Origin: Balanoglossus misakiensis
Lineage: Eukaryota; Animalia; Hemichordata
NCBI GenBank assembly: GCA_040954595.2
Contig: JBECUI020000051.1
Location: 1-60,918 of the forward strand
DNA length: 60,918 nucleotides
Direction of reading: 5' to 3'
Positions 12,601 through 54,036 of the stretch are shown here, piece after piece. The notes beneath the pieces were generated by a model. That model did not search any database. It was not told where the DNA came from and was given only the letters and a program-made list of their open reading frames with translations. Every line of letters begins with the position of its first letter. Positions within the stretch are counted from its first letter, which is position 1. A program made the translations under genes and the position numbers.

Positions 12601-12829
12601 CCTGTTCCCAAACAATATCATCACCAGATTTGAGAACAATTTTATATCCATCAGGACTTACCCCATCGGGAGCTCCCCAAGAGAGAAGAATGCTATTGTC
12701 AGCAATAAAAGATGCGGACAAATTTCGCACGGCATTAATTGGTGCCGTACCCCCAGTGCTCCCCCCACCACAAGATAAAAGCAAACCAACAATCAATATA
12801 GTTGTTGTAATCCATATACTTCTAAACAT
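3662..12829 (-). CDS. Giant (about 3055 aa) surface lipoprotein with FN3 and Ig-like (Big_2) repeats and a C-terminal right-handed beta-helix
   Basis: Likely start ATG 12829 behind AGGAGG. Signal peptide with lipobox LLSC-GGG. Many W..P...Y FN3 patterns, Big_2 patterns (WESVDPTVATVNADDGLVQAVAKGTTSITATS), repeated YNENSSPxLxNVxF beta-helix coils, terminal PDIGPYE. Confidence 0.85.
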   Translation of the reverse strand: MFRSIWITTTILIVGLLLSCGGGSTGGTAPINAVRNLSASFIADNSILLSWGAPDGVSPDGYKIVLKSGDDIVWEQDIAADDPNIVSTETEIRYTITTELLSNVEYSVELQAKAGNAMSAISTVLNLQTGAVGGGVSNIQAFERQPDSITLQWQAPAESVYKYIIKLTDESGNEIVKEVSAIEVVNQNGIIQYKADTLEEGRTYQVVITTWLDASGTLLSTPIETAYQIATLVREKVDVGMVTFTADFAAKEIILRWLAVSAGRNDQGITIPTRYRIYVSTDQPVVAEENLTETIEPSNEDSYELRVMQLANGTELEPETAYFIVIKAEAMDGEIVSSESLSRRMEGITTPASSAAPDAVDPLTIRKVMTEKEIKTLTIAWDRVGQGLDESGNFAPTSYVISYLPADPAPTEDEWNSAISQETDLPQITLSGLESVVSYQIRIQSKNKAVPTLTSTWTEPQSFLSNGVTSIIILPYRQSMENEEEQILEATISGENIVEDIRWTNDQPELAGIIDNGDRTATITAVGAGEVTITASSVADPAFTETATIIITLQEATQPGMPTDLTAAEAQTVQATDGSATVSIPISWTAPVDTGTITGGNAATISTYWFYWHEGETFHEETAGVPVEVSGASHTLTGLKGDASYSLAVSANNGLEGPKSTFVVRTPSLVRQVGTVVSPMVATTQTEISMSWSAVAPGRTATGAIQAVTGYEVYLSTTIGTSEEIAVEGNKRTEAITGSDNPAITMSGLGIGTSYYLVVKAMAENSFALSSVQTITTKEVIDQSTNPGSPTDIQKDATYTAINEIRIFWTEGSQGTDSAGNDVSSVFIVSYRKHGSTTWETMAATTNLYQTIRNLDGGEEYEFRVRAEWNTLYTSNWSSTGTFYSNGVASVTIDGEDPITLLKRSSQTLSATVIGSNIAETVRWESVDPTVATVNADDGLVQAVAKGTTSITATSTADPTQSDTITLTVTLPNIGGTLSYDTTSPAIYSDGKEYHPTLGAGSPSDSLIYSIDATKNGVQVSGFQVNNLGVLQVLPTADAGSYAARIEARNADEYEGELLWQGTVTVTPKNIDIYNMIYTLLSVRFNRTTDIPVNTNIPIPVEYRITDRAGNAPSADISIDDNGTIRVGSTVPEGSHELQVTATVPADNTNFRGQKIVDIEITVVAETITGSLSYTIDQMPQYGVEHRYNPVFGAGSPPTNELIFAVEVILGGANVTEGFLVTTEGILTVGNNVPAGSYTVIVTATHPTYSGNLRWQETLVIFPLDRSTAPSAPIFIESIATLSDVTLQWQVLTSGSDVNGNPAIITSYTIYVKNSTGAPPHLPPELIESNKLAEITTDLDNPHYTMPHPVYNGQTYLVTATNNVGLTSEASEPQTLYTTYTAAGINIYKESGNMEFGQLKINWSEPEYPGRNVFGEHVAARYTLHYSRGGGRTVNYGDVHTRPVTLTGLVAGAIYTIEVKSYNDPPTTISHGFDSYSTRKELRSNGIASFTLQADIPNAPDGGIDVTDGQFTMYEGSTQSFTALLQVDSAPDGVTWTVSPNDGRVTLNSNTDHTVIASANVQASALLTATAGDGTSKTITITVEPASTAPGAPTNLQNVQEEFIDDNGVLSVTLKLQWTAPIKSGAYEGSPSYDLNYVVYWADGSMEVSGTTHASIPNLRYNTNYTFTVRATNGILGAQSAPLTVQTPVYPTSEPVIVDQFYLSWPNANDIDISVRNHNPGGVDQYGLPYPFTLDAYYSTSLDSAYSITAADLVSSGTALTTIDTRTKRANMASYNGFFHFVFRSANNGGATTLGPVVKLEGPFPVLRLTKNAGSIAPYVDAESVRNAAQISFGNALQTEGESPSFQTGQPLTLLVYEMRYRTSDGGTVGPWSEIIRLSDSNVIDSLPWEGGIDYHVQMRVLAPDTSTPGIEITSVSQWLSVDPVFMGSKVSIDVPTNITMGENWERIITVNEVDDWLEHDFTQDGGATPLESSIQYSSSDENVAKITPIPGSNQGKIETFQAGHAELTISFHNNGNGTYQPIVTTKTINVEVRSDYVFSYSIPDRMEVMTGYVLSPTLAPTPPADIQYRLEPTNPDIIIDEHGVITIEDTLIAGDYLLNVYATGTNYYASSSVTVIIVPYDISPTRPTYYDEWQYAGNDDNGIRQEAYRSTGQTALTYSYRGIFLQGSTPEWRLAKIGDLTISLTPITVYPSDSITVSTDPSTWGDLHISAADLTPGIHEFFLTITGGGAYFSGSISSRYKFTKYRTPDQIGEKPVVAISGEQEFTLNWDATFDGYDLITDYEVAYSIDRATWNNISSTPDAQGISGTRSDRVMVVRGLTLGVQYSFSVAARNAAGVSVASPASNAIKASWVPKSDARVNVVSGSDSITVAFDPPSANHASIQHYKILYGTMQPPTTVFNPDENGYTILPPIGSDPNYPYNVVFTSEHIQQERIYYFSVLAVNMHGAGAPSTPMPGIMGTREFPAAATDLQFSNITYSGWTVSFSHSGRYGTNAFGNQAGFEQYRVEYGTSRENLTETRIITDVTTKQYTVDGLLQNTQYYLRVVVRNDDLLEVASAIMEVRTQPFRAYVLKSVVGESNGESWDTAFTNIQDGIDAAAAVGGGEVWVSGNHQVSTATGGSIQLRNNVQVYGGLERGAQTLEGRTESEIILVTAGHAFYNTDLDATAVLDGFEITGQQFQSVTPDKGAGMYNLNASPTIRNVLFYTLAARYRGAGMYNENSSPLLENVDFEANILRGNAGGEYENRKGVAIYNENSSPILRNVQFKHSRDYTFGVMYNKDSSPVLENVLFWSNTGYEVSAMYNENSNPILIDTVFTVNNVDTTTGFSPASRSAIYNENSSPIFINILITGTRSEDFFVFNAQDSFSTIINGLLLEEDADRPNAAGKYLIYNTDSSGVSLVNSVFLQRPLFHGSGMFGGVFQYTHSYLTEIYNSEGTISGIDLGNNVTLMPTFQFGNSNWDLSAFMARGLDDVWKTADDGYHPASDSSLVDQGLYIAIAADYSTIYYSADQLIWYTDVANPETSTTVLPADAIERKSITGNAIQGMPDIGPYEQQY

Positions 12830-13070
12830 ACATCCTCCTGTCATTAGAAAAAACCAAAATACAAGATATATTATAATACAAAAAGGAAAAAAAACAAGCA
12901 AAATAATAATGTTTTTGTTTTTATCTCAGTAAACTGCTGCAAAGATATAAATACAAATGAAATATAAATAAAATTATAAATCACACTTTCCAGAGGGGCA
13001 TCCTGCTTTTTTTATTATCTTTTCCGTGCAGAACCTCATTCATATATATATAAATTTTTGTATATAACTC

Positions 13071-31720: not shown

Positions 31721-31896
31721 CGCCTGCTCACCGCCCGTATTATTCTCTCTACGCTCGAACTGTATTGTCCACCGAACAGGTGATTCAAAAGATGATAGAG
31801 CTTATATACATCCCTCTCGTACTCAGGTGGGAGTGGATATTCTTTTGCATAAGAATGATAAAGATCAGGCAAAAATCCCGAAAAGAACTCAGTCAT
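31717..31896 (-). pseudogene. Diverged duplicate of the fructosamine-kinase 3' end, still an open 59-codon ORF
   Basis: 31728-31898 aligns to 41538-41728 with about 9 substitutions and deletions of 8, 6 and 6 bp. It reads MTEFFSGFLPDLYHSYAKEYPLPPEYERDVYKLYHLLNHLFGGQYSSSVERIIRAVSRR*. Confidence 0.85.
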
Positions 31897-31904
31897 AGGG
31901 CGCC

Positions 31905-33086
31905 TTATCCGTGGTCGACATACAATACGTTCGCAAGTATCAGAAACACTGCCCCAATCACCTTACGTCGCGGATCTGACGCCGCATTCACCACTGATAT
32001 GTCGGATATCGGTTGGCAGGCCTCTACTACCCTCATGTAAATCAAATCAAAAAAAGATTTTTCAAGAAAACTTTCGCCAAATAAGATAATTTTTTTGCTG
32101 TCAATAATCTTTTCTACAATTGATATGGCTATGCTAATACACTTCGCAGTGTGTTCCATTACTTCGTACAGTCGAAGATCTTTGTCTGCATGCCTAAATA
32201 CAGTGTGTGCCTTGAGCGTTTCTATTGAAGTATGCCCTTCAAATAAATAGGGAAACTCCTGCTTGTAATTGGGAATGGCTTGTATCAAATTTCTTAATGT
32301 TTCTTCTGATGTTAAGGCTTCTAAACAATTGAGTTTTCCGCATACTTTGCAAGATATCTGATAATCCGAATGATATGGCAGTTCTATATGACTTATCTCA
32401 CCGGCTACTCCGTGTTCGCCCTTAAATATTTTTCCATGAACCCAGAATGCCATGCCTATTCTTGGTGCATATTTTACACATATAAAATTATCGTTAAACT
32501 GATTGAGCATGTATTCGGCATAGGCAAGACTATGTACATTGTTGCCTTTTAAGACGTGGATGTTGTACTTTGTTTCAAAATATGTTTGTGTGTATGTGCT
32601 CAAGGAATCTAAAACCTGCCATTCTTTGGTTAGTCCTGATATTTTTATTTCGCTACCCGGCATGGTAAGCCCTACACCCAAAATTTGTGACGGAACTATA
32701 TTGGCTTCTTGTATGCCTTCCTGAAAAATACGAGAAATGTTTTCTTTCCAAAAACTTTCCATGTTTTTTAGATCCATGCTTTTTGTTAGATGAAATTCGC
32801 ATTCACCTAAGCAGTTCGCTATAGCAAATTCTATATGATCAATTTCAAAGGCAACAGCAACTACATAGCCAAACCCTTTGTTAATGCCTAATACAACCTT
32901 ATTCCTGCCGACAGAACGAGAAAGAATATTTCCCTCTTGCCTAACTATGCCCAACTGTATCAGTTTGCTTGAATACTGAGAGACCGCGGCTCTTGTCAGT
33001 CCTAATGAACTTGCTATATCACGTTGAGATATGTCTGACCTCTTAAAGATTTCATATAAGATTTTCTTCTCTGTATTATTAAACAT
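31905..33086 (-). CDS. ROK-family transcriptional repressor
   Basis: N-terminal wHTH (SQRDIASSLGLTRAAVS...GR), GEISH and CxxCGxxNCLE zinc motif. Confidence 0.9.
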   Translation of the reverse strand: MFNNTEKKILYEIFKRSDISQRDIASSLGLTRAAVSQYSSKLIQLGIVRQEGNILSRSVGRNKVVLGINKGFGYVVAVAFEIDHIEFAIANCLGECEFHLTKSMDLKNMESFWKENISRIFQEGIQEANIVPSQILGVGLTMPGSEIKISGLTKEWQVLDSLSTYTQTYFETKYNIHVLKGNNVHSLAYAEYMLNQFNDNFICVKYAPRIGMAFWVHGKIFKGEHGVAGEISHIELPYHSDYQISCKVCGKLNCLEALTSEETLRNLIQAIPNYKQEFPYLFEGHTSIETLKAHTVFRHADKDLRLYEVMEHTAKCISIAISIVEKIIDSKKIILFGESFLEKSFFDLIYMRVVEACQPISDISVVNAASDPRRKVIGAVFLILANVLYVDHG

Positions 33087-33237
33087 TAGCTGACCCCATT
33101 ATATTAAAAACTAGAAAGTATTGGTAATCAAGATGCAGAGTGTTTCGCATATTATAGAAATCAGCAGTGTACGGGTCTGATTCCTGTCGTGTAGAAAAAA
33201 ACCTATAAGAATAGAAAAATATACCTGTCTATATTTA

Positions 33238-33876
33238 TTATAGTATAATTTCTATATTCTCACCATGTAATAACACTTCTGCACCTTGCTCGATAAGCCA
33301 ATCTGCATCTCGATGAGCAAGCATCCATTTGTCCCGCCTAAAAAGATATCCCGGGGTGATATGTTCCGAACACATATCATTTGTTCCACGTGGCAATATA
33401 ATAACACTCTTAAATCCATGTTTGCTCACACTGCAGGGGGCAAAATGTAATACACGTGGGTACAATTCGACAGCACTCTCGCGTTGTACATAAAAAGATG
33501 CCAAATCCGATGTCTTATAACTATGATCTGAGGCAATATATTTCGGCAAACCAAGAAGAAGAACCAGATCAGTAACTGCAAAAATCACTTCTGCACTTTT
33601 ATGATATTCCAAGGCGTTCAGGCTGTTTCTCCATCCATTGCAAACACCGGCTTGGATATTAACATCGCCAAATGTATGTTGCTTAATAAAATGATATTCC
33701 TTCGTTTCTTCCAAAGAAGGCATAGAGGCTATGTACTCATTTCCATCTTTTGGTAGAGACATAGCACCAACTATGTCAAGTGATCTATGTATATCAACTC
33801 CTGTGATAATAGTCCCATACTCATTAAAGGATCTGTCTGTAATCAAAGGAATATCTGTCGTATTAATTTGTCTCAT
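33238..33876 (-). CDS. DUF4867 protein (SftX/SqvB-like, associated with sulfoglycolysis)
   Basis: F.EYG, G.CNG...LNALEYHKSAEV, ELY...LHFAPC, ILPRGTN, KW.LAH, GENI. Confidence 0.82.
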   Translation of the reverse strand: MRQINTTDIPLITDRSFNEYGTIITGVDIHRSLDIVGAMSLPKDGNEYIASMPSLEETKEYHFIKQHTFGDVNIQAGVCNGWRNSLNALEYHKSAEVIFAVTDLVLLLGLPKYIASDHSYKTSDLASFYVQRESAVELYPRVLHFAPCSVSKHGFKSVIILPRGTNDMCSEHITPGYLFRRDKWMLAHRDADWLIEQGAEVLLHGENIEIIL

Positions 33877-33906
33877 ACATGTACTTCCTGCCTATGTTTA
33901 CAATTA

Positions 33907-34770
33907 CTATTGTCCTGCTTTTTCAACAACATTGTACGTTGCAGAAAAATCTTCTTTCCCGATCCCCTCGTCCATTGCCTTATCGTATATGGATAAGATA
34001 TGCTTGACGACAGGAAGATTGAGCCCAAGGTTAGACACAAATTCGTCGGCAAGATGAACATCTTTGTGCATATTCTCTACTGAAAAAGCCGTAGTGAAAT
34101 TTTTATTTTTTATTGCGAGCCCCTTTGCATCGAGGTAGAAGTTTTGTCCGCCGCCGTAGGATATCGCCGGCATAAAATCTTCAATATCTATGCCCGCTTT
34201 TTGTGCAAGTAGGATCATTTCGTTCACGCCGTTTTGTATTTGTGCAACAAGCATATTATGTATCAATTTCATAATAAGCCCTTGTCCGTTCCCTCCCAGA
34301 TGAATGATATTGTTTCCTATACAAAGCAATAGATCTCTTACTTTTTCGTATGTTGCTTTATCTCCGCCTACATAGATACCAAGCGTACCTTCTAGCGCTG
34401 CAGCCTTGCTTTTTACAACAGGCGCATCGAGCATAACTGCCCCTTGGGCGGCTATCTTTTTTGCTATCTGACGAGAAACCTTCGGCGAGATGGTACTCAT
34501 ATCTACAAATATCTGACCACTTTGTACACTATCTATAAAGCCTTCGTATACAGATTGTACATGTTCGCTCTTGGGCAACATACTAAAAATAACATCACTT
34601 TTTTGTACGACATCAGCAGCAGACGTACCAGCCTCTGCCCCCTTTGATACAATCAAATCTACTTGAGCTGTATTCACATCAAATACAATCACAGCGCAAC
34701 CTGATTTCCTTAAAAGATTTTCACTCATGGACTCGCCCATGATTCCAATTCCAATAAAGCCTATTTTCAT
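33907..34770 (-). CDS. beta-hydroxyacid dehydrogenase family; probable sulfolactaldehyde reductase
   Basis: IGFIGIGIMG, DMSTISP, DAPVVKS, catalytic K in MKLIHN; adjacent to the SF transaldolase gene. Confidence 0.78.
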   Translation of the reverse strand: MKIGFIGIGIMGESMSENLLRKSGCAVIVFDVNTAQVDLIVSKGAEAGTSAADVVQKSDVIFSMLPKSEHVQSVYEGFIDSVQSGQIFVDMSTISPKVSRQIAKKIAAQGAVMLDAPVVKSKAAALEGTLGIYVGGDKATYEKVRDLLLCIGNNIIHLGGNGQGLIMKLIHNMLVAQIQNGVNEMILLAQKAGIDIEDFMPAISYGGGQNFYLDAKGLAIKNKNFTTAFSVENMHKDVHLADEFVSNLGLNLPVVKHILSIYDKAMDEGIGKEDFSATYNVVEKAGQ

Positions 34771-34779
34771 ACTATTCTC

Positions 34780-35460
34780 CTATTCTTTTGTGTTGTCCCA
34801 CGCATTCTGAAATTTCTTCAACCCATAGTCGGTAAACGGATGATACATGCTATCCAGATACACAGAAAGCCCACATGTTACGATGTCCAGACCTAAACTT
34901 GCTGCTTCTGCAATTTGCTTTCCGTTTCTAATCGCTGCTGTTATTACTTCTGTTTTTGATAAAGTACTATAGTTGTCTAAGACCTGTCGAATAGTAGAAA
35001 GATAGTCTATGCAGTCTTCTCCGCTATTCTCCTTCCAAGCAACAAATGGCGATACAAACGATGCCTTTACTCGTGCCGCGGCTAATGCTTGTGATGGTGA
35101 AAACACCAATGTAACGTTCGTTCTGATTCCCTTTTCTTCTAGTTTCCTTGCTGCAATAATTCCCTCTACTGTACAAGGCACTTTTATCACGAAGTATTCT
35201 GATATCTTTGCAATATCCTCTGCTGCCGCGAGCATATGCTCAGATTTCTCCAAATGAGGATCAATTTCGATAGAGATTGGGAATACATCCGGACTGCCCG
35301 CGTTCTTCTTTGCCCATGCAGATAACTCTGAGACTACTTCTTTGTTTGAATGCCCACTATTCATTACATGGTTCGGGTTCGTTGTTACCCCATCTATTCC
35401 AAATGAGTAAAATGCTTCATCAACTTCATTGAGTTTTGCACTGTCTAAAAAATATTTCAT
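34780..35460 (-). CDS. Probable 6-deoxy-6-sulfofructose transaldolase (SftT/SqvA-like)
   Basis: MKYFLDSA, IDGVTTNP.H.MNSG, FPIS.EI.PHL, VIKVPCT, TNVTLVFSPSQAL, SPFVAWKENSG (W where ordinary transaldolases have GR), AIRNGKQI, FTDYGL.KF.NAWDNT. All match my recollection of Bacillus SF transaldolase. Confidence 0.85.
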   Translation of the reverse strand: MKYFLDSAKLNEVDEAFYSFGIDGVTTNPNHVMNSGHSNKEVVSELSAWAKKNAGSPDVFPISIEIDPHLEKSEHMLAAAEDIAKISEYFVIKVPCTVEGIIAARKLEEKGIRTNVTLVFSPSQALAAARVKASFVSPFVAWKENSGEDCIDYLSTIRQVLDNYSTLSKTEVITAAIRNGKQIAEAASLGLDIVTCGLSVYLDSMYHPFTDYGLKKFQNAWDNTKE

Positions 35461-35477
35461 AACTTCTCCTTAATTAA

Positions 35478-35494
35478 TTAATTAATTTACTTAA
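35478..35494. promoter_or_regulatory. Candidate ROK operator, copy 1 (TTAATTAATTTACTTAA)
   Basis: Imperfect palindrome identical to 41385-41401, lying between the -10 box and the RBS of the transaldolase gene. Confidence 0.7.
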
Positions 35495-35508
35495 ATATCT
35501 TTTTCTAT

Positions 35509-35538
35509 ATTCTACCACGTGATTTCTTTTTTTGTCAA
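35509..35538 (-). promoter_or_regulatory. Internal sigma70-type promoter for transaldolase-reductase-DUF4867
   Basis: Minus strand TTGACA (35538-35533), 18 bp spacer, TAGAAT (35514-35509) with TG extension. Confidence 0.68.
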
Positions 35539-36302
35539 GATAAAATCAAGGATCGGTAGAGCAATATACTATGAGCAATGAGCAGGCGGAATCCTATTAT
35601 TATCAAGAATACATAAACTATTTTGTGATAGTCTATTTTTGTATTGAGTGATAACTCGAAGGCCTTGAGTCCAAGAATTGTTCCTATGATAAATCCCGGC
35701 AATGCCCATAGTATATTTATTCCAAGCGCTGCGGTGAAAAATCCGTTTATCCAAAATCCTATTAATGCGCCTATCATCTGAATCATGAAAAACATTGATA
35801 GTGTCGCCTTCGTTCTCTGTGGAGACCATGCCTTGCTTGATAGAAATGCAATAACAGGTGGTCCGGGTTCTCCTACTGATGCACCTAATGATCCTGATAA
35901 GAATCCTGCGATAGAATTTTTCAATAAGGACGATTCTTCTTCGTTGTTATATGTATCCGGTTTTTTTTGCAATAGAAAATATATGCCCGAAACAACTAAT
36001 ATCGCTCCCATCGCAATAAGAATAATATCCTTGTCTAATACTTTTAGCAGCCATGCACCTAAAAACGTTCCGGGTAAAGCCCCTATTACTAAAAATATAA
36101 CATCCTTCTTCACCACGTGTTTGTACATTTTGAACACTATGGGAAATGTTACGAGCCAGCCATATATCCCCGCAAGTGGTACGCTTACTTGAGGAGCGAC
36201 AAATAGCGAGAGGGTCGATACCGATACGAGTGCCAAGCCAAACCCTGTAAATCCTTGTACAAAGGAGGCAAAGAAGAGTATTATGGAGAACAAAAATTCC
36301 AT
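35535..36302 (-). CDS. TauE/SafE-family sulfonate exporter
   Basis: FVQGFTGFGLALV, ALPGTFLGA, GEPGPPV; about 8 TM segments. Confidence 0.87.
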   Translation of the reverse strand: MEFLFSIILFFASFVQGFTGFGLALVSVSTLSLFVAPQVSVPLAGIYGWLVTFPIVFKMYKHVVKKDVIFLVIGALPGTFLGAWLLKVLDKDIILIAMGAILVVSGIYFLLQKKPDTYNNEEESSLLKNSIAGFLSGSLGASVGEPGPPVIAFLSSKAWSPQRTKATLSMFFMIQMIGALIGFWINGFFTAALGINILWALPGFIIGTILGLKAFELSLNTKIDYHKIVYVFLIIIGFRLLIAHSILLYRSLILS

Positions 36303-36305
36303 ATG

Positions 36306-37067
36306 CTATGTAGTTATCTTTGTACTTGTACCCTTCATAAAATCCTTGTTTTTATCTCCCACCCAGTATCGATTGCCTGCAATACACCAAATAAAACATA
36401 AGGGTTCCTCATGGCTAAATACGGGATGATAATTAAGAAGTGGTATGGTTATATGGTCACCTACTTCGACGGATGTTACAAAACTCAGCTTCTCGTCGTT
36501 TTCATATACTTGCATAGCTCCACTTCCTTCGATAAAACTGTAGCATTCTTCCTGGTCTGTATGATTGTGTGGTGGCCATGCCCTTGTTTTAGATTCGTAA
36601 AAGGTGTATCCCGCCATAAACTTGTTTGCTTTTTCAGAAACGTCAAACATAAGATAGACCTTTTTTTTGTGCAATAGCCGCAATCGTTCCTTATCTGCGT
36701 TTATTTTTTTCCACTTTGAATGGAAGACTGGGTGTTTTTCATTCCCTATCGCTCTGTATACATACAAATGACCTATATTTTTTTTGTCTTTGTGTTCTAC
36801 ATAAAATTCTGTATCTATGGGAATATACAATGTATCGCGTGATTCCAATATATATTTTTTCCCTTCTACAACACAATCTACTTTTGATCCTAAATTGAAA
36901 ATTAACACCTCTTCTTTTTTGTATCCCAATGTCATGGATCTTGTCTGATCAATTCTCAATTCGGCTAAACTAAGAAATTCTAAGTGAGAGTTAGATTGAT
37001 TAAATATTTCAATAAGCTCACACTCGGCACTTTCTACATTAAATTTTTTCCCATCCTTTAACTTCAT
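36306..37067 (-). CDS. IolB/KduI-family bicupin isomerase (candidate SQ isomerase)
   Basis: RDTLYIP, metal motif WPPHNH..QEE.Y, GD...IP..YHP, W.IAG. Confidence 0.72.
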   Translation of the reverse strand: MKLKDGKKFNVESAECELIEIFNQSNSHLEFLSLAELRIDQTRSMTLGYKKEEVLIFNLGSKVDCVVEGKKYILESRDTLYIPIDTEFYVEHKDKKNIGHLYVYRAIGNEKHPVFHSKWKKINADKERLRLLHKKKVYLMFDVSEKANKFMAGYTFYESKTRAWPPHNHTDQEECYSFIEGSGAMQVYENDEKLSFVTSVEVGDHITIPLLNYHPVFSHEEPLCFIWCIAGNRYWVGDKNKDFMKGTSTKITT

Positions 37068-37083
37068 ACTGTCTGCCCCTTTT

Positions 37084-38208
37084 TTATAATTCTATTACTT
37101 TTTTTGTTTTGATCGATTCTTCTGCTGCTAGTCCAATAAGTACTGCTTTTATACCGTCATCTATACCAACTTCGACCCTTCCTTTACCTTGTATAACTTC
37201 ATTGAATTTTTTATGTTGATGAAAAGTCGAACCATGATGGTCCCCAGCGCTCTGTAGACTGCTATCTATTTCTATGTCTTTGCTTATGGGACCTTTCGGG
37301 TTTCGTGGACTTACAACAAGTTGAGACTTTCTATGTTCTCCCACAAAGCCTGTAGAATGTCCTATTTCCGACAAATCGTTTACCGCCCATATCCGATCTG
37401 GCCCCGGTACCTTGCATTCTATTTTCCCCTTGTCTCCCAACACAGTAATTTCTTCTTGAAAATATGAACCATCACAAAACATACAGAGATCCAAGGAAGC
37501 TCGTTTTCCAGACTTAAAATCCACTATTACATAGGCATTATCTATAATATCAGGGATCTTGCCTTCGTATCTTTCGTCCAGAAAATTTAGGTCTGCAGCC
37601 CCCGAGGCATATACACGCACTGCCTCATCTGCGGCAAGGAGCCTCATCAAATCAAAAAAATGACAACATTTTTCAACAAGAGTGCCGCCTGTGTTTCTGT
37701 TAAACCGGTTCCAGTTGCCTACTTTTGTAAGGAAAGGAAATCTATGTTCTCTTATAGAAATCATCTTGCTGTTTCCAACAATCCCTTTCTGTACTTGCTC
37801 TATCATCTCAGACACAGCTTGCATGTATCGGTATTCCATTGCTACCCATATCGATGATTTGTAAGAGGCTGCTTGTTCTAAAATTTCATCGCATGCTTCT
37901 CGACTCGTACAGAGTGGCTTTTCTACTAAAACAGGTCGGCTGTCTGTCTTGAAAATATCTCGTAAAATGTCTACATGCGTATAGTTGGGTGATGCAATAA
38001 CAAATGCATCTATATTACTGTCTTTTAATAACTCGGTGTGGCTATCGTATGCTGTTGCATTCTTTAATAGTTCGAGAGAAAGTCCTTGTTGTTCTTTATC
38101 AGGATCGGATATTGCAACTACTTCTGTATTTTCTAGTAAAAGAATATTTTGAATGTGCTCTCGTCCCATCATGCCAGAACCTATTATTCCATATTTTATA
38201 TTTTGCAT
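37084..38208 (-). CDS. Gfo/Idh/MocA protein; probable NAD+-dependent sulfoquinovosidase (GH188/SqgA-type)
   Basis: Start MQNIKYG at 38208. GIIGSGMMGREH, VEKP, MEYRY, REHRFPFLTKVGNWNRF..NTGGTLVEKCCHFFDL, LCMF, HHGST. Confidence 0.8.
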   Translation of the reverse strand: MQNIKYGIIGSGMMGREHIQNILLLENTEVVAISDPDKEQQGLSLELLKNATAYDSHTELLKDSNIDAFVIASPNYTHVDILRDIFKTDSRPVLVEKPLCTSREACDEILEQAASYKSSIWVAMEYRYMQAVSEMIEQVQKGIVGNSKMISIREHRFPFLTKVGNWNRFNRNTGGTLVEKCCHFFDLMRLLAADEAVRVYASGAADLNFLDERYEGKIPDIIDNAYVIVDFKSGKRASLDLCMFCDGSYFQEEITVLGDKGKIECKVPGPDRIWAVNDLSEIGHSTGFVGEHRKSQLVVSPRNPKGPISKDIEIDSSLQSAGDHHGSTFHQHKKFNEVIQGKGRVEVGIDDGIKAVLIGLAAEESIKTKKVIEL

Positions 38209-38237
38209 ACAATTCTTCTCATCTTGCTTATCTCTTT

Positions 38238-39524
38238 TTACATCATGCCTAATAGTGTTGGAAATCCAGTTACCAATACAGGGAAGAATGAAATAATAAA
38301 GACAATTGCAACTTCTACTAAAATAAACGGCAGTGCTTCCCATGCTATTTTTTCTAAAGAAATGCCGGATAGTTTCGAGGCTACAAACAAAACCAATCCC
38401 ATAGGTGGAGTCGCTAATCCTATTGTTACGTTAACACTCATTACGACACCAAAATGTACTGGATCTACGCCCAGATCTATAAGTGGGGCTGCTAGTATTG
38501 GTGCAAATATTAAAATTGCAGGACCTGCATCTAAAAACATGCCTATGATAAGCAAAATTACATTTATTATCGCAAATAATAAATAGGGGTTTTGTGTTAT
38601 TCCATAGAGAAACCTGTTCATATAATTGGATATCTCCGTAAGGCTTACCAAACTTCCCAATCCAGATGCTACCCCTATCAGTAACAATACGCTTGCTGAG
38701 CTGATCATGGAGTCTTTTATAACTGCCCAAAGTTCTTTAAATGAAAGCGATCTATATACAAATAGTGCTATGATCGCAGCATATCCCGCGGCAATCGCTG
38801 CGGCTTCAGTTGGCGTAAATATACCACCGTATATGCCGCCAAGTATGATTACCGGAGACAAAAGTGCAAAAAAAGCTTTCTTAAAACTGCCTACTCGTTC
38901 TTTTCTTGTTGCCTTCTCGGTTGTAAATAAATAGCCTTTTTTTAGACAAAGAACATAGTTCATTGCCATAAGGAATACACAAAATAAAATACCGGGTATG
39001 ATAGCAGCTATAAACATGGTACCAACAGAAATATTCATTGCAAAGGCATAGATAATCATAATGCCACTGGGGGGAATTATCGGACCAAGCACTGTGGCTG
39101 CTGATGTAATGGCTGCTGCATAAGAGGTCGAGTATCCTTCTTCCTTCATCTTGGGAATAAGCATACTTCCAATGGCAGATGTGGCTGCAACAGCGGACCC
39201 TGTAAGTGCAGAATATATTGTGGAAGATAGTACCACAACATGCCCTAATCCTCCTTTTTTATGTCCTATGAGAGACTTACAAAAATCTATAATTCTTGTA
39301 GTTATGCCCCCTTTTCCCATAATGTTTCCCGCCAAAATAAAAAACGGAAGTGCTAACAAAGTAAAGCTTTGTAATCCTGCAAGAAACTTATTTATGAACA
39401 ATGCTATAAATTGTTCTGCACCCGACATTTCTATTCCTATAACCCCCGAAAGGAGCAAAGAAAAAAGAACGGGTAATCCTGTAAACATGAGACCAATCAA
39501 GAAAACAAGGATAAATGACGTCAT
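38238..39524 (-). CDS. dctM: TRAP transporter large permease DctM
   Basis: LLALPFFILAG, GSAVA, PIIPPS, GIFTPTEAA, GLATPPMG. Confidence 0.93.
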   Translation of the reverse strand: MTSFILVFLIGLMFTGLPVLFSLLLSGVIGIEMSGAEQFIALFINKFLAGLQSFTLLALPFFILAGNIMGKGGITTRIIDFCKSLIGHKKGGLGHVVVLSSTIYSALTGSAVAATSAIGSMLIPKMKEEGYSTSYAAAITSAATVLGPIIPPSGIMIIYAFAMNISVGTMFIAAIIPGILFCVFLMAMNYVLCLKKGYLFTTEKATRKERVGSFKKAFFALLSPVIILGGIYGGIFTPTEAAAIAAGYAAIIALFVYRSLSFKELWAVIKDSMISSASVLLLIGVASGLGSLVSLTEISNYMNRFLYGITQNPYLLFAIINVILLIIGMFLDAGPAILIFAPILAAPLIDLGVDPVHFGVVMSVNVTIGLATPPMGLVLFVASKLSGISLEKIAWEALPFILVEVAIVFIISFFPVLVTGFPTLLGMM

Positions 39525-40104
39525 AGCGATCCCTCACCACTTTCTACATCTACTACTTCTTCTCGAAATTCCTCATTGAGAGTTTTTTTATCGCCCCTTA
39601 TCGCAGCTAATATATCTTGTATTATATGTTGTACTGTTATAGTAAACATAAAGATAAATGAAATCGGTGCTACCATGTACAGTTGACCTTTGCTTATGGG
39701 CATCTGCACGTTGGAAACGCTCATGCTTTTGAGAGATATATCAATGAGGCCTGGAATTATTCTGTATAAACTGAAAAGCATCATCGAATATAATAATAAG
39801 TTTAATATTAGTTTAGGATAAATGCCTGTTATTTTATCGTATATTAATGTCATGCTGATGTTAAGTTTGTCTAACATCAAAGCGGGGTCCCAACAAGAAT
39901 GTCATAATGAACATTGCAGAAACACAATATTCTTCTACCCAAGCAATAGGATTTTTGAAAAAATAACGCATCGTTCTGTATCAAGACAAACAGAGTCATA
40001 GAACTCATAAAGAGCATGCCAAGACTGGCAAAGACCACGCTTATAAAGCGATGGATCTTATCGACATAATATATAATGGTATCTACCAGGCCTTTTTTTT
40101 TCAC
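39521..40104 (-). CDS. dctQ: TRAP transporter small permease DctQ (frameshifted in this sequence)
   Basis: Fragments 39877-40104 and 39521-39880 are hydrophobic and lie between dctP and dctM. Confidence 0.75.
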
Positions 40105-40117
40105 ATCACTACCCCAT

Positions 40118-40150
40118 AAAAAAGTTCCCTGACTATGAAGTAAGGGAACT
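40118..40150 (-). terminator. Intrinsic terminator-like hairpin after dctP
   Basis: Minus strand AGTTCCCT-TACTTCATAGTC-AGGGAACT followed by a T-run. Confidence 0.65.
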
Positions 40151-40164
40151 CTGTGTGATAAAAA

Positions 40165-41304
40165 CTATTCTAATTCCCGTGCTTGTATCTGATCTAAAAT
40201 TACTTGTTGTTTTGATATTTCTTCTTTGTAACGATCGAGCCATGCCAATGTTTCGGGCGATGAGTTTTCTGCAAACCAATCTTCAACAACTTTTGCCCTT
40301 TCTTGAAATTCTGCTAATTCTGCTTTGCTTGGGCTATACACTGTTCCACCTGCTTGTTTAAAGGTTTCAAATGAACTTGCTTCTGCGTACTTGTTGTATT
40401 CTCTGATAAACCAGCTCATCGCATCGAACCCGTCTACAAATACCCTCTGTAAGTTTTCAGGCATGGATTCAAATTTTTCATTGTTTACCCACCAAAATCC
40501 AGACATATACGCATGACCATCTAATACTATGTACTTCAAGCTTTCATGTAGTTTTGCATTGACAATGTCCACCATTCCGTTTTTACTTCCGTCAACAACG
40601 CCTGTCGATAGTGAGGTGTACACTTCACCCCATGAAATACCTGTTGGTGATGCACCTACGGCACTTACTAGCTGTTGTTGCACTTTAGACGGTACTGTTC
40701 GTATTTTAGTCCTGCAAGATCGTCTACTGTTTTAATTTGCTTTTTTGTTGTAGCAAAATTTCTCCATCGACCACTGTTCGTTACGATCATCAATCGTGCG
40801 TTTTCTGTGGCTTCTAGGGCTCCTTGTCTGAGTCCGCTTACAAATTCCGGAGAGGAGTGTACCATTTCTACAAGTCGATCATCGGTTACTAGGTACGGAA
40901 GATCAAAAATCGATATTGGCTCCCAGTATACACTTGCATCGCCTGTTGTGTTTACGATGTCAAAACTTTGTTGAATAATACCGTCCATATTCTCACTGAC
41001 CGATGAAGCCAACTGTGCATTCGGATATATCTTCACAGCAAGGCGTCCATTAGATTTGCTTCAACATAGTTCTTTAGCAAAACAAGTCCTTTTGCTTGTA
41101 ATCGTCGAGATTACCATTATGTGAAGCAATAAAAATAAATTCTGCACCCTCCGGTACTGCAGAGTAGTCGTACGATGCCTCTTTTGGTACTACCTCACCA
41201 CTAGCAGCTGCATCGCTTGTGGCTTGGTTTGTACTTTCTATACCGCAACCTAGAAAACTTAACAATAGAAAGCTTAATAGCATTATTAAACATACTTTTT
41301 TCAT
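40165..41304 (-). CDS. dctP: TRAP transporter substrate-binding lipoprotein DctP (two frameshifts in this sequence)
   Basis: Fragments 41074-41304 (lipobox FLGC), 40668-41036 (IYPNAQL, FDLPYL, RNF) and 40165-40683 (GASPT.I.WGEVYTSL.TGVVDG). Confidence 0.85.
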
Positions 41305-41537: not shown

Positions 41538-42408
41538 TCACCGCCCATAATGCCGTATTATTCTCTCTACGCTCGAACTGTATTGTCCACCGAACAGGTT
41601 GAGGTGATTCAAAAGATGATAAAGGTTATAGACATCCCTGCGATGCTCGTACCCAGGTGGGAGTGGATATTCTTTTGCATAGGAATGATAAAAATCAGGC
41701 GAAAATCCCGAAAACAGCTCAGTCATAGCAAGATCAGTTTCCCGGTTGCCATAATACACTGCCGGATCAATAAGAACCGGAGCACCTTGGCCATCAACCA
41801 TGTAGTTTCCACCCCATAGATCTCCATGCAGCAAAACCGCCGGTTCATCGCTAAGAATATCTTCGAGGCGACGAAGAAGACTACGAAATAAGCGTTCAAT
41901 CTCTTTGCCACCAAGTAGCCCCTGTTCCATCGCCCATGAAAACTGATATTCAAGCCGATGCTTCGCAAAAAATTCATGCCAACTATTTGCATATGTATTT
42001 CGCTGCCGAGCAGAGCCGAGATAATTATCATGAAAGAAGCCATAGGTATCGGTTTCACTCTGCTTATGCAGCTTCGCCAGTTCTCTGCCGAAACGGGAAA
42101 AAATGCCGCATCTTTCTTACCGCTCTCTATGTATTCGCAGAGAAGAAACTGGTATTCACCGGATACCCCATAGGCATACACAGCCGGTACCCGAATAACT
42201 CCGCTTTCTGCTAACTTTTTCAGCCCCATTGCTTCGCAAGCAAAGAGATCGCGGATAGAAGCCTTGTTGCTTTCAAAAAATACTGCCGATTACGAACTCT
42301 TATCCGAAAGCATTCATTGATGCACCCACCACCGCAGGGCAATAACTCATCTACAGAAGAATCCTTGCCTATGTTTTCTTGTAAAAAAGCACGTAATTCA
42401 TCATGCAC
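41538..42408 (-). CDS. Fructosamine/ribulosamine kinase family protein (frameshifted)
   Basis: Fragments give GGGCIN, IRVP, LLHGDLWGGN, IDPAVYYGNRETDLAMTELF, YNLYHLLNHLNLFG. Confidence 0.88.
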
Positions 42409-43443: not shown

Positions 43444-44883
43444 CTATAGCTCCTCTAAGCAGTATAGCAAAAATTTCCAAACCCGCTGTGCTGAGGCAAT
43501 GTGCAGGCGTTCGGAAACCGAGTGGATCTCTTCCATATCCACTCCAATACTTATCCCATCAAGATCGGGAAGTCGTGATTTTAGCGCCCCGCATTCCAGC
43601 CCCCCATGTACCACTCGTATTTCAGGTTCTGCATTATAATGCTGCTTATATATACGTTTCATATGTGCAAGGAAGGGCGAATCAAATACGGTGCCCAAGC
43701 AGGATAGCGCCCGCCCCTTTGAACGGCAGCATCCGCTATCTTCACTGCGGCTTCTACAAGCCGAGCGATATAATCAATCTTTTCTTCTACCAGTGATCGG
43801 AAACTTCCAACGAAATTTGCAGTATCCCCCTCTAAGAAGAGGCCGGCAAGAGTACTCGAAGTTTCGACAAGATTAGGAACATTCTTACTCATGTCCAGAA
43901 CCCCCATAGGAAAGCAGAGCACCATAGTTACTACCTTTTCCGTATCTTTGGAAGAGAGAACCCTCTCAGGCAAGGACGCAGAAGTTAGTTCCACCTTCAT
44001 TTCCGGTTCGGTTTTTCTCATATTCCTGACGGAGCACATTGCTCAGATTCTGCACATGTTTTTCAAACTCTTCTTGTTTTTCTTTCGGAACAAGAATTCC
44101 CACCCTTGCTGCCGATGGAATTACATTATGGATGGAAGAACCAGCTGTTATTGAAAAGAGACGGATATGCCCTGTCCAGAGTGCCAATATACGAAAGAGG
44201 CTTGCTATGGCATTTGCCCTACCCTTATGTATGTCTTCCCCTGAATGTCCTCCGCAACAGTCATGAAGGCTCAAATTATAGGCTATATGATGAGATGGGG
44301 TGTTCTCCCGTACAAAAGATAGATCTCCCCACGCCGTCTCACCCCCTGCACATCCAATGCAAAGGACATGTTCCTCTCCGCAATCAAGATTCAAAAGTCG
44401 CCGTGCTCGAAGCATTGTTCCATCAAAAGCACATGCCCCTACCAATGCACTTTCTTCATCCACCGTCAATAATGCTTCCAGTGGTCCATGACGGATATTA
44501 TCATCGTCCAAAATAGCATAGATAATAGCAAGCCCAATCCCATTATCAGCACCGAGGGTCGTATCGGCAGCATAGACCCAAGTCCCATCGTTCTTCAATC
44601 GGATCGGGTCTACGGAGAAGTCATGGGTACTCTCCGCCGTCTTTACACATACCATATCCAAATGTGCTTGAAGTGCCAGCGGTTCAGCCCCACTTCGTGA
44701 AGGATGAGCATTTTTACGAATGAGTATATTGCCAATATCATCTTGCCGAACAGTAAATCCACGTCGGGTAGCAAAGTCAATAAAAAAAGCACGAATTTTT
44801 TCTTCGTGTTTTGAACAACGCGGTATAGCACTAATACTTTCAAATGCTTTCCATAGAGCTACTGGTGTCAAATTATGTATCAT
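43444..44883 (-). CDS. pepD: Aminoacyl-histidine dipeptidase PepD, M20C (frameshifted)
   Basis: IPRCSKHE, LQAHLDMVC, TTLGADNGIG, TVDEE, GGHSG.DIH.GRANA, HGGLECG, HS..ER. Confidence 0.9.
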
Positions 44884-44987
44884 CACCTGTAAGAATATCA
44901 ATGATGAGAATGTATGACAAGACTCATTTCCCCTTGATTGCTCTGACAAAAACATAATATACTTATGGAGTATAAGGAGGAACGCGT

Positions 44988-46453
44988 ATGCAGTTTAACT
45001 TTTCCAGTAAAAGATTTAATACCGAAGTGGTAACATTAGCAAACACAGAAGAACGACTCGTGCCCGGTGGAATGCATCTATTAGACCAAGTCCATAAGGC
45101 ATTTGAACCGATTAAACAAATCGGCATTATCGGCTGGGGCTCTCAGGGTCCGGCACAAGCACAGAATCTTCGCGACAGCCTAAAAGGCAGTAAGACAAAG
45201 GTATGTGTTGGATTACGCGAAGGATCATCTTCGCAAAAAAGTGCCGAATCCGCAGGATTTACAGTTGCAAACGGCACCTTGGGCAATATGGAAGATGTCA
45301 TACGAACAAGCGATCTCGTATTGTTACTGATATCCGATGCGGCACAGGCACAGTTATACCAGTCGATATTCTCAATGATGAAGCCAGGTGCTACTCTTGG
45401 TCTCTCTCATGGGTTCTTGCTCGGATACCTGAACAGCATTCACAAACGCTTCCCCGATACGATAAACATTATCGGTGTATGTCCCAAAGCATGGGTCCTT
45501 CCGTTCGACGACTCTACGAACAAGGCAAGAGTACAAAAGGGGCGGGAATTAATACAAGTTTTGCCATAGAGCAGGATATTGATGGACATGCAACGGACTA
45601 CGCCATAGCATGGTCGATTGCCTTAGGTGCCCCCTTTAGTTTTATGACCAGTCTTGAAATGGAATACCGATCAGATATTTTCGGCGAACGAGGCATTTTG
45701 CTTGGTGCCGTGCACGGTATCGTTGAATGTTTGTACCGATGGTTCCGCTATCAGGGCATGGATAATAAACAGGCATTTATTGAAAGCGTCGAATCGGTTA
45801 CCGGTCCCATATCGCATACAATTTCATCAGCAGGAATCCATGCTGTATATCAAAACCTATCGGATTCAAACAAGAAATTGTTTGAATTGGCATACAATAC
45901 CGCCTATCTTCCCTGCAAGGAAATACTTGATGAAATATACAATGAGGTAAAAAGCGGAAATGAAATTCGTTCAGTAGTTATGGCGGACAGCCGATTGCAA
46001 AACTACCCGATAAACACCATTGATGACACTGAAATGTGGAGAACAGGTCGAACTGTCCGGGAGAATCGTAAGCCTGCCCCCGTTAATCCCTATACTGCAG
46101 GAATATATATTGCCTGCATGATGGCTCAAATCGACTTACTGAAGGAAGAGGGGCATAGTTACTCCGAAATTGTCAATGAATCAGTTATTGAAGCAGTAGA
46201 TTCGTTAAATCCCTACATGCATTTCAAAGGAGTCAGCTACATGGTTGATAACTGCTCCACCACTGCACGTTTGGGTGCACGAAAATGGGCACCACGATTC
46301 GATTATATTATCAATCAATGTACCATTCCTGCTATTGAGGAAAAGAAAGCAAAAAATACAGAATATATGCAGCGCTTCTTATCGCACCCGGTGCATGAGG
46401 TCTTGCATACATTATCGCAATACCGTCCAAGTGTCGATATAGCTGTCGTATAA
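44988..46453 (+). CDS. ilvC: Ketol-acid reductoisomerase, long plant-like type (frameshift near 45490)
   Basis: IGWGSQGPAQAQNLRDSL, LISDAAQ, LSHGF, VCPK/MGPSVRRLY, EYRSDIFGERGILLG, NESVIEAVDSL, DNCSTTARLG. Confidence 0.92.
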
Positions 46454-52079: not shown

Positions 52080-54011
52080 CTATTTGTCATCTACCACTTC
52101 ATAGTCAACATCTTCGGCCTGCTGCTTGCTCCCGCTGTCCTTCTCATTTGATTCCGAACCCTTACTTGAACTGGGCTCTTCATTAGAACTATCACTAGAA
52201 GTTTGTGTTGACTTATATGCCTCTTCACTGAGTTTATGGGCAGCTTCTTTTAACTTGGTGGCAGCAGTATTAATTACTTCCGCATTCTTGCTTTCCATTG
52301 CCGTGCGAAGTTCTGTAATAGCTTCTTCAATCTGTTTCTTGTCGCCGCTTTTTACTTTGTCTCCTAATTCTTTCAGCGCTCGTTCAGTGCTAAAAATAAG
52401 AGTATCGGCTTCGTATATGCATCGACAGCACTACGCAGAGACTTGTCTTCATCTGCATGGTTCTTCTGCTTCCTTGACCATGCGCTCAATTTCCTCTTCG
52501 GTAATGCCGGAAGAACTTTCTATGCGAATTTTTTGCTCCTTGCCCGTTCCCAAGTCCTTAGCCGAAACATGTACTATTCCGTTTGCATCAATATCAAATG
52601 TAACCTCAATTTGTGGAACACCCCGAAGGAGCAGAAGGAATTCCAACCAGATCAAACTTCCCCAATGTCCTATTCTGCACTACCATTTCACGCTCTCCTT
52701 GCAGAACGTGGATGGATACAACCGTCTGGTTATCACCAGCGGTTGAGAATACCTGACTCTTTCGTGTAGGGATAGTCGTATTGCGTTCAATAAGTCGGGT
52801 AAATACACCACCGAGTGTTTCAATACCCAATGAAAGCGGAGTTACATCCAAAAGAAGAATGTCTTTTACATCCCCACCAAGAATGCCACCCTGTATGGCA
52901 GCACCAAGTGCAACAACCTCATCAGGATTCACCCGCGATGCGGTTCCCTCTCAAAGAGATCACGAACAATTTCCTGCACTGCAGGGATCCGTGTCGACCC
53001 ACCGACTAGAACAACCTGATCAATCTCCAAATGCCGATAGTCCGGCGTCCTTGAGAGCATTGCGACAGGGTTCTTTTGTCTTTTCCAATAAATGGCTAAT
53101 CATTTGCTCAAACTTGGCTCGATTAAGAGAGTACTGTAAATGCTTCGGTCCACTGGCATCTGCAGTAATAAAGGAAGATTTATCTCGGTCGATGTGGAAC
53201 TGGAAAGCTCCTTCTTTGCTTTTCTGCCGCCTCTTTCAAACGCTGTAATGCCATGCGATCCTGAGAAAGATCAATGGCCGTATCGCTCTTAAACGTGCTG
53301 ATCAGCCAGTCAATAATGTGCTGATCAAAGTTATCTCCTCCAAGATGGGTATCCCATTGGTAGATTTAACTTCAAAGACTCCATCGCCGAGTTCAAGAAT
53401 GGAAATATCAAAGGTACCACCGCCTAAATCATAGACAGCAATTTTTTTCGTCTTTTTTCTCTTTTCCAAATCCATACGCTAATGCCGCAGCCGTTGGTTC
53501 GTTACATACGTTTTACTTCCAGCCCCGCAATGCGTCCTGCATCCTTCGTTGCTTGCCGCTGTGCATCGTTAAAATAAGCTGGAACAGTAATAACCGCCTC
53601 GGTAACAGTAGTTCCCAGATATTCCTCAGCAGTTTCTTTCATCTTGCGAAGAATCATTGCGGATATCTCCGGTGGAGATATCTGTTCTTTGTCAATAACA
53701 ACATGAATACCATTCTGCTTGGATTTTTCTACCTTGTAGGGAACCATAGAAACTTCTTCGTCAACTTCAGAGAATTTTCTTCCCATAAAACGCTTAATCG
53801 AATAGACTGTTTTGTCAGGATTGGTAACAATCTGATTTTTTGCAGGCTGACCGGTTAATCGTTGTTCTTGGTTGTCTTTTTGAGTAAAAGCATCAACGGA
53901 TGGCGTAGTACGCTGTCCTTCGCTGTTTTGTATAACAACTGCATCGCTGCCTTCCATAACAGCAACACAACTATTTGTCGTTCCAAGATCTATCCCGATA
54001 ATTTTGCCCAT
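52080..54011 (-). CDS. dnaK: Chaperone DnaK (multiple frameshifts)
   Basis: [62 protein letters not shown]. Confidence 0.96.
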
Positions 54012-54036
54012 ATTATCCTCCAAATTTTATATTTAT

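Follow-up and report, generated by a model that had tools for sequence, protein, structure and literature searches.

Gene content of the cluster

A stretch of 60,918 nucleotides (positions 1 to 60,918) of contig JBECUI020000051.1 of the Balanoglossus misakiensis assembly GCA_040954595.2, referred to here as the window, carries ten co-oriented genes on its minus strand (41304 to 31905). They encode the components of a tripartite ATP-independent periplasmic (TRAP) transporter (dctP, dctQ, dctM), a Gfo/Idh/MocA-family protein, a KduI/IolB-type cupin, a TauE-type exporter, a transaldolase of the TAL_FSA family, a beta-hydroxyacid dehydrogenase, a DUF4867 protein and a helix-turn-helix (HTH)-ROK regulator (Table 1). 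An initial annotation, made from the sequence of the window, had listed these genes in the same order and orientation, and interpreted them as a variant of the transaldolase pathway (sulfo-TAL, or sulfo-SFT) for sulfoquinovose (SQ), an abundant sulfur sugar of plants and algae. The order and orientation were borne out, and the cupin is considered here as a candidate for the isomerase that converts SQ to sulfofructose (SF).

The reductive sulfo-TAL pathway (SftT/SqvA, SftI/SqvD, SftR, SftX/SqvB, SftG and SftE) has been described in Eubacterium rectale, Clostridium symbiosum and Bacillus spp. (PMC7491151, PMC9594981, PMC11968277; papers are cited by PMC number throughout). The window cluster shares with it an SF transaldolase of the same clade, DUF4867, a beta-hydroxyacid reductase, a TauE-type exporter and a regulator. 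Unlike it, the cluster has a TRAP transporter rather than a major facilitator or solute:sodium symporter for import, and a KduI/IolB cupin and a GH188 protein instead of the FucI-family isomerase SftI/SqvD and a GH31 sulfoquinovosidase. Within the ten-gene cluster, Pfam and open reading frame (ORF) scans detected neither a GH31 gene nor one for FucI/SqvD, in agreement with the initial annotation.

Table 1. Features of the cluster and its borders in the window
Feature	Position	Strand	Basis or remark
Direct-repeat copy	41553..41728	.	within 3' end of fructosamine-kinase gene, upstream of cluster
dctP, TRAP solute-binding protein	40165..41304	-	Pfam DctP on both pieces
dctQ, TRAP small permease	39521..40104	-	weak Pfam DctQ match, C-terminal piece
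dctM, TRAP large permease	38238..39524	-	TIGR00786 above cut-off
GH188 NAD+-dependent sulfoquinovosidase (SqgA type), predicted	37084..38208	-	PDB matches and residues
KduI/IolB-fold bicupin, candidate SQ-to-SF isomerase	36306..37067	-	PF04962
TauE/SafE exporter, predicted export of sulfonate (2,3-dihydroxypropane-1-sulfonate, DHPS)	35535..36302	-	PF01925
SF transaldolase (SqvA/SftT type), predicted	34780..35460	-	8BC3 match, clade membership
Beta-hydroxyacid dehydrogenase, predicted sulfolactaldehyde reductase (SftR-like)	33907..34770	-	identity and motif
DUF4867 (SqvB/SftX)	33238..33876	-	PF16161, 201 bits; PDB 9GYY, E 2e-47
HTH-ROK regulator, predicted repressor	31905..33086	-	HTH_24 and ROK domains
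Second direct-repeat copy	31735..31898	.	downstream boundary, before yggU; two 6-bp deletions

Enzymes of the proposed sulfofructose transaldolase pathway

The transaldolase scores 258 bits against the SF transaldolase of Bacillus megaterium (BmSF-TAL, 8BC3) and at most 142 bits against ordinary Tal, and in a tree of 38 rows it falls within an SF-TAL clade of 29 sequences with 100/100 support, many of them from SqvD clusters. An identity as ordinary Tal/FSA, which the initial annotation had named as part of an outcome that would speak against its reading, was rejected from these bit scores and this placement. The sulfonate-binding triad of SF transaldolase is reportedly Arg-Trp-Arg (R30/W138/R172), as said to have been described by Snow in 2023. 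The Trp and the latter of the two Arg residues occur in 29/29 members of the clade (W142 and R178 in the window protein), and position 30 is R in 15, N in 8 and K in 6. The window protein has N30, as do 7 further rows, 4 of which come from SqvD-containing clusters or genomes.

The Gfo/Idh/MocA-family protein has its best PDB matches to the GH188 structures 8QC3 (E 1e-116) and 8QC2 (E 2e-113), with the following family reaching only 5e-23. Eight residues contact SQ in GH188 SqgA (K107, Y136, R166, L170, K172, E189, H193 and H321; PMC10755693), and the equivalents of all eight are kept in the window protein, the start of which was set by alignment at the ATG at 38208. On sequence grounds the protein is thus a member of GH188, as first proposed, with predicted sulfoquinovosidase activity. 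An inositol dehydrogenase was considered for this gene and rejected (131 bits against a cut-off of 355, the GH188 matches being far stronger). The characterised GH188 enzyme shows no activity on glucosides or glucuronide (PMC10755693; see also PMC11465081). A divergent GH188-like group, 31-37% identical to the window protein (L087/L101, L092/L106, L133-L135, L256 and L079; L and G numbers denote loci and genomes of our comparison set), retains an R-x3-[FL]-x2-K-like sulfonate loop and in some spirochaetes adjoins SF transaldolase or YihQ.

The window reductase is 54-59% identical to the reductases found beside SF-TAL in SqvD clusters, with which it has a DAPVVKS motif in common. It scores below the YihU NCBIfam cut-off (174 versus 348 bits), and its role as an SftR-like sulfolactaldehyde reductase is a prediction. 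The closest relatives (L001, 5649-14117; L249, 8407-14214) carry a cupin-transaldolase cluster with no linked reductase. DUF4867, a cupin proposed as a putative mutarotase (PMC11968277), and a sulfonate-type exporter gene, the further marks of a sulfo-TAL cluster, are both present in the window. The assignment of the reductase and the TRAP transporter to the pathway agrees with the occurrence of both families in SqvD-containing sulfo-TAL clusters. Taken as a whole, the cluster very probably encodes an SQ transaldolase pathway.

Fold and active site of the cupin

The cupin (253 residues) matches PF04962 with 46.1 bits against a cut-off of 23.9. Its predicted model (mean predicted local distance difference test score 95.9) is closest to KduI (Z 24.5, root-mean-square deviation 2.1, 216 residues aligned) and to the IolB-like protein STM4420 (2QJV, Z 23.7), with further bicupins at Z 21-22. 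It shares with KduI (7YRS, 1XRU) and STM4420 the bicupin fold and a His-x-His-x4-Glu motif: the metal ligands H198, H200 and E205 of KduI have H167, H169 and E174 as their aligned counterparts, and these three, together with H214, which from the model would be the counterpart of KduI H248, are invariant in 53/53 rows of the cupin tree and alignment. The protein is predicted to bind a metal at a 3His-1Glu site. Besides the ligands, several catalytic residues of KduI are conserved. T155, Y176 and K135 align to KduI T184, Y207 and R163, the last position thus being Lys in place of Arg (KduI residues after PMC10792219).

The cupin differs from KduI and IolB in its low identity to them (15-20%), and it falls well below the cut-offs of both equivalogs (NF002091 for KduI, 36 versus 250 bits; TIGR04378 for IolB, 33 versus 205 bits). 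No kduD, kdgK or iol genes (iolC/D/E) were found among the ten cluster genes. A search of family representatives (296 matches) and the Atlas confirmed a KduI-like family and gave no further function. KduI and IolB are aldose-ketose isomerases acting on C6-anionic hexoses, and we infer that the conversion of SQ to SF is a reaction of this same type. In E. coli, KduI facilitates glucuronate breakdown (PMC3578941). The reaction predicted for the cupin is that of the known SQ isomerases YihS (PF07221) and SqvD/SftI (PF02952), to which the protein is unrelated in family and fold.

Linkage of the cupin to SQ genes

A genome scan yielded 54 cupin loci, and the neighbouring ORFs of chosen subsets (61, 40, 33 and 57 proteins) were scanned against Pfam. 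The cupin lies inside SQ clusters in 8 other genomes, which span two phyla and two pathway types. Three clusters are of the transaldolase type (G001, G002 and G592). Two are oxidative, sulfoacetate-type sulfo-transketolase (sulfo-TK) clusters (G003/L012 and G384/L136), and that of L012 comprises ROK, the cupin, two transketolase subunits, RpiB, an acylating aldehyde dehydrogenase and a CoA ligase. The remaining three, outside the spirochaetes, are reductive, isethionate-type sulfo-TK clusters in Lentisphaerota metagenome-assembled genomes (MAGs) and a genome of the same class (L030, L048 and G509). In a transketolase tree of 49 rows, the L030 and L048 enzymes group in a clade of support 100 with transketolases linked to SqvD and YihQ. 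The rows of the trees are tblastn matches above a length cut, free of stops and de-duplicated.

Many other cupin genes stand alone. Among the 17 cupin genomes without an SF transaldolase, 15 have a transketolase matching an SqwG-like query at E<=2.5e-80, although that of G409 groups with apparent paralogues; of the other two, G414 carries a split transketolase gene that adjoins yihQ, and in G004 no match reaches this threshold. A YihQ-like GH31 was found at E<=1e-135 in 16/18 cupin genomes versus 30/401 genomes of the phylum sample, a threshold picked after viewing the list, E<=1e-100 being too loose (105/401). A motif derived from three sulfo-TK promoter sites occurs upstream of 11/14 stand-alone cupins at a shuffle P<=0.05, and at <=1/300 for 4 of them; in a first pass it had been found for 10/16 cupins versus 0/77 controls.

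Complementarity of the cupin with SqvD

A search profile for SqvD was built from 11 SqvD-like proteins. In none of the 19 spirochaete genomes with the cupin was an SqvD orthologue detected (best match at E 1e-39), nor in G592 (0/1), so that all three cluster relatives G001, G002 and G592 lack one in this search. In 9 of the 19, no match to the profile was seen even at 1e-10. An orthologue at E<=1e-74 was present in 27/32 cupin-less comparison genomes, which had been picked for an SF transaldolase (13/14 with SqvD) or a strong YihQ match (14/18). One of the remaining five, G214, has a divergent match inside its cluster, and the other four have neither enzyme. Among the spirochaete genomes compared, 20 with the cupin and 33 without it, none showed both the cupin and SqvD. 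The order to which G001 belongs (9 genomes) has the cupin in three, and another of its members, G588, has dctPQM, a divergent Gfo gene, SF transaldolase, reductase and SqvD, with no cupin. A Fisher test of 0/19 versus 27/32 gives p 9e-10; it ignores kinship, and our conclusion is not rested on it.

In one of the genomes with neither SqvD nor cupin (G350, locus L096), genes for an altronate-dehydratase-like protein, a LarA-like protein and an aldehyde dehydrogenase come after an SF-type transaldolase gene.

Proposed pathway and alternative roles of the cupin

In the proposed scheme, the TRAP transporter would import SQ-glycerol or SQ, and the GH188 protein, in place of a GH31 sulfoquinovosidase, would free SQ, using NAD+ as a catalytic cofactor. 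Isomerisation to SF of SQ in its open-chain aldose form would fall to the cupin, through an enediol at its 3His-1Glu metal site, much as KduI/IolB act on C6-anionic hexuronates. The SF transaldolase would then move a C3 unit onto glyceraldehyde 3-phosphate, giving fructose 6-phosphate and sulfolactaldehyde; the reductase would convert the latter with NADH to DHPS, TauE would export the DHPS, and the ROK protein would act as repressor of these genes. Gene content, families, conserved residues, fold and co-occurrence are what was observed, and from these we infer every activity and substrate in the scheme. Since the cupin is linked to SQ genes in two pathway types and is mutually exclusive with SqvD, it is a supported candidate for the isomerase, and comparative evidence has in this way been gained for the isomerase role that the initial annotation had given to the IolB-like protein. 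We consider that the cupin is probably a non-orthologous SQ-to-SF isomerase standing in for SqvD/SftI; the scheme in its entirety, in which a variant sulfo-TAL pathway produces DHPS and the cupin acts as isomerase, is fairly probable.

Several observations weigh against this interpretation. Four comparison genomes (G282, G350, G374 and G389) have neither SqvD nor cupin, and the genomes compared are incomplete, related MAGs, so that the co-occurrence counts are not independent. In the source organism, the search for SqvD covered the ten-gene cluster, and a copy elsewhere in its genome is possible. Of 20 cupin genomes from outside the spirochaetes, one has a FucI-fold match at 8e-87. Most spirochaete cupins (14/19) lie outside any SQ cluster; seven of the motif matches are one identical site shared within a single clade, and the motif does not reach significance before the window dctP (65/300) or for L001, L256, L003, L004, L012 and L013. 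KduI residues R203, T194 and M262 are not kept in the cupin, the window transaldolase has N30 in place of R30 of the Bacillus megaterium enzyme, and no reductase was found genome-wide in G001 or G002 at E 1e-20.

Distant FucI-fold proteins, which could moonlight, are present in 10/19 cupin genomes (E 1e-12 to 1e-39), and G001 carries one of 542 amino acids. With the predominance of unlinked cupins, and with the mutarotase role proposed for another cupin of these pathways, DUF4867, they would suit a purely accessory function of the cupin (opening of the sugar ring, mutarotation or the clearing of a side product). The isomerisation of SQ would in that case be left to a FucI-fold protein encoded outside the cluster or to a housekeeping isomerase. 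Such a helper role would not require SqvD to be absent, yet the cupin and SqvD never occur together in the spirochaete genomes compared, and nearly half of the cupin genomes show no match to the SqvD profile at all at 1e-10. Moreover, the closest folds to the cupin are ketol-isomerases, and DUF4867 is already present alongside it in the window. We therefore regard an accessory role as unlikely.

Relatives of the cupin outside SQ clusters

Every invariant active-site residue of the cupin is also present in some 30 relatives from Acidobacteria, Planctomycetes and Lentisphaerota. YihQ or GH188 was found in 0/10 tested genomes of this sister clade, and most of its cupins sit with Gfo, AP-endonuclease-2 and aldehyde dehydrogenase genes, which also counts against an SQ-specific function. 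Either the cupin family is not specific for SQ, or the sister-clade loci represent unrecognised SQ pathways. In a further alternative reading of the window, the cupin would be a broad isomerase of hexuronates or hexose-6-anions, IolB/KduI-like, with SQ not its main substrate and the cluster acting on a related sulfosugar or a uronate. The invariant active site at loci without known SQ genes, the recurrence of NagB-like and deacetylase genes near some cupins and SQ genes, and the change of R30 to N in the transaldolase are compatible with such a function. It is made improbable by the intact sulfonate residues of the GH188 protein, whose characterised relative leaves glucosides and the glucuronide untouched, by the absence of iolC/D/E and kduD/kdgK from the ten genes, and by the position of the transaldolase in the SF-TAL clade.

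It is fairly probable that the cupin is the first member of a third SQ isomerase class, which would serve transaldolase and transketolase sulfoglycolysis alike. The wider proposal, that in addition the Acidobacteria and Planctomycetes loci (Gfo, AP-endonuclease-2 barrel, cupin, atypical transaldolase and aldehyde dehydrogenase) are unrecognised SQ pathways using neither known sulfoquinovosidase, is tentative and less probable; these loci are read as SQ pathways because the active site of the cupin is invariant there.

Several observations on neighbouring genes are recorded here. At Acidobacteria loci (L023, L025, L029, L018, L024, L032, L036 and others), the cupin is accompanied by a Gfo oxidoreductase, an aldehyde dehydrogenase and an AP-endonuclease-2 barrel; some of the loci also have a transaldolase whose motif is unusual (SPF[IVL][HN]RK, ASIRT). 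They possibly encode an undescribed sugar or sulfosugar pathway. A comparison of their aldehyde dehydrogenase, in which Rhizobium 8C54 ranked sixth among the matches, gave no assignment. A protein of ~280 amino acids without a Pfam match, NagB-like by its motifs, recurs beside SQ genes (L136, 13709-15517; L140, L150, L030 and L034), usually accompanied by an amidohydrolase or a PIG-L deacetylase, and might feed an N-acetylated amino-sulfosugar into SF. In spirochaete GH31 sulfo-TAL clusters (L102, L103, L104, L105 and L107), a protein of ~354 amino acids, M24 peptidase-like in the one scanned, lies between yihQ and the transaldolase gene. A longer GH31, 35-41% identical to YihQ, is present in ~75/401 Spirochaetota genomes, many near 4 Mb.

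Transport and regulation

The two pieces of dctP are 43-51% identical to DctP of GH31- and SqvD-containing sulfo-TAL clusters in other spirochaetes, and the protein likely binds SQ or SQ-glycerol. DctM is 57-61% identical to DctM of 5 SqvD-type clusters, 75% to that of G588 and 80% to that of G592. We tie the TRAP transporter to SQ because its family occurs in spirochaete clusters with GH31 and SqvD. TauE is only 25% identical to TauE of an SqvD-type cluster, and its predicted role as DHPS exporter follows from the known pathway (PMC7491151).

The ROK regulator is 55% identical to that of the L001 and L002 clusters. A promoter scan returned 25 sites versus 33.8 expected and is uninformative; two sites matching at 11/12 positions precede dctP and the transaldolase gene, respectively. 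A palindrome search found no shared site.

Probable genomic island, host and integrity of the cluster

A gene flanking the cluster scores above the cut-off for the SpiroCoCo family NF047514, for which reason the host is called a spirochaete, and the nearest relatives of the cupin come from Spirochaetia MAGs. The cluster is bordered by a direct repeat of ~165 bp, a duplicate of the 3' end of the fructosamine-kinase gene, and is the 9.4-kb stretch of lowest GC content in the window (38.4% versus 42.9% in the remainder). Target-site duplication and compositional shift, both sought as marks of an island, are thus present, and agree with the earlier description of a spirochaete island. Short-read contigs end at the downstream repeat copy, as expected at a true repeat. 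No integrase was found among the ten cluster genes, and no empty site among three relatives, in all of which (3/3) the kinase gene lacks yggU within 1.5 kb and all of which are too distant to show one. From these features, the 3' end of the fructosamine-kinase gene is the likely insertion site of the ten genes.

Both dctP (with 3 indels) and dctQ are frameshifted in the window, and the DctQ of L001, used as a tblastn query, matches dctQ in two frames. These breaks could indicate a decaying or incomplete island with a broken transporter and a pathway that does not run. A contig assembled from a public run, possibly made on the source sample, differs from the window by 37 substitutions across its 8.4 kb and has indels at the break sites, and once these are applied dctP (381 codons) and dctQ (195 codons) are open. 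Since this read-derived contig opens both frames, the breaks are probably assembly errors. With housekeeping genes of the window likewise split and all the enzyme genes intact, decay of the island is very improbable and largely refuted; the cluster is likely functional, as a variant of the known sulfo-TAL pathway.

The other split genes (41538-42229, 43659-46453 and 53502-54023; fructosamine kinase, a peptidase, ketol-acid reductoisomerase and dnaK) are consistent with an indel-prone assembly, and two indels near the kinase gene are not present in the read-derived contig. Elsewhere in the window, an ORF of 3079 amino acids (3662-12901) has no NCBIfam match at E 1e-15.

Relation to known SQ pathways

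The initial annotation had regarded both the gene combination and the host phylum as undescribed. That does not hold for the phylum or for GH188: sulfo-TAL clusters have been reported in individual Spirochaetes genomes (PMC7491151), and GH188 genes have been reported in sulfo-SFT clusters without GH31 (PMC10755693, a paper whose organism list includes Spirochaetes entries). What may be new is the exchange of the isomerase for a cupin and the TRAP importer. YihS and SqvD/SftI are the only SQ isomerases named in the parts examined of PMC9594981, PMC12890257, PMC13436972, PMC13372026, PMC11968277, PMC13219744 and PMC11659671. Full-text literature searches, which covered open papers, found no KduI/IolB cupin linked to SQ, a term search of the supplement of PMC10755693 gave no match to KduI or PF04962, and no TRAP transporter was found as importer of an SQ pathway in the literature examined. 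The new element is a candidate SQ isomerase of a third class; the GH188 exchange is on record already, as is the host phylum.

If the cupin is indeed an SQ isomerase, it would complete pathways in spirochaetes and Lentisphaeria that are currently called incomplete. Its gene would also serve as a new marker, and >1,000 proteins (1,213 matches) of a family now labelled 5-deoxyglucuronate isomerase would receive a first function. Should the wider proposal hold as well, SQ degraders would be undercounted in soils and sediments.

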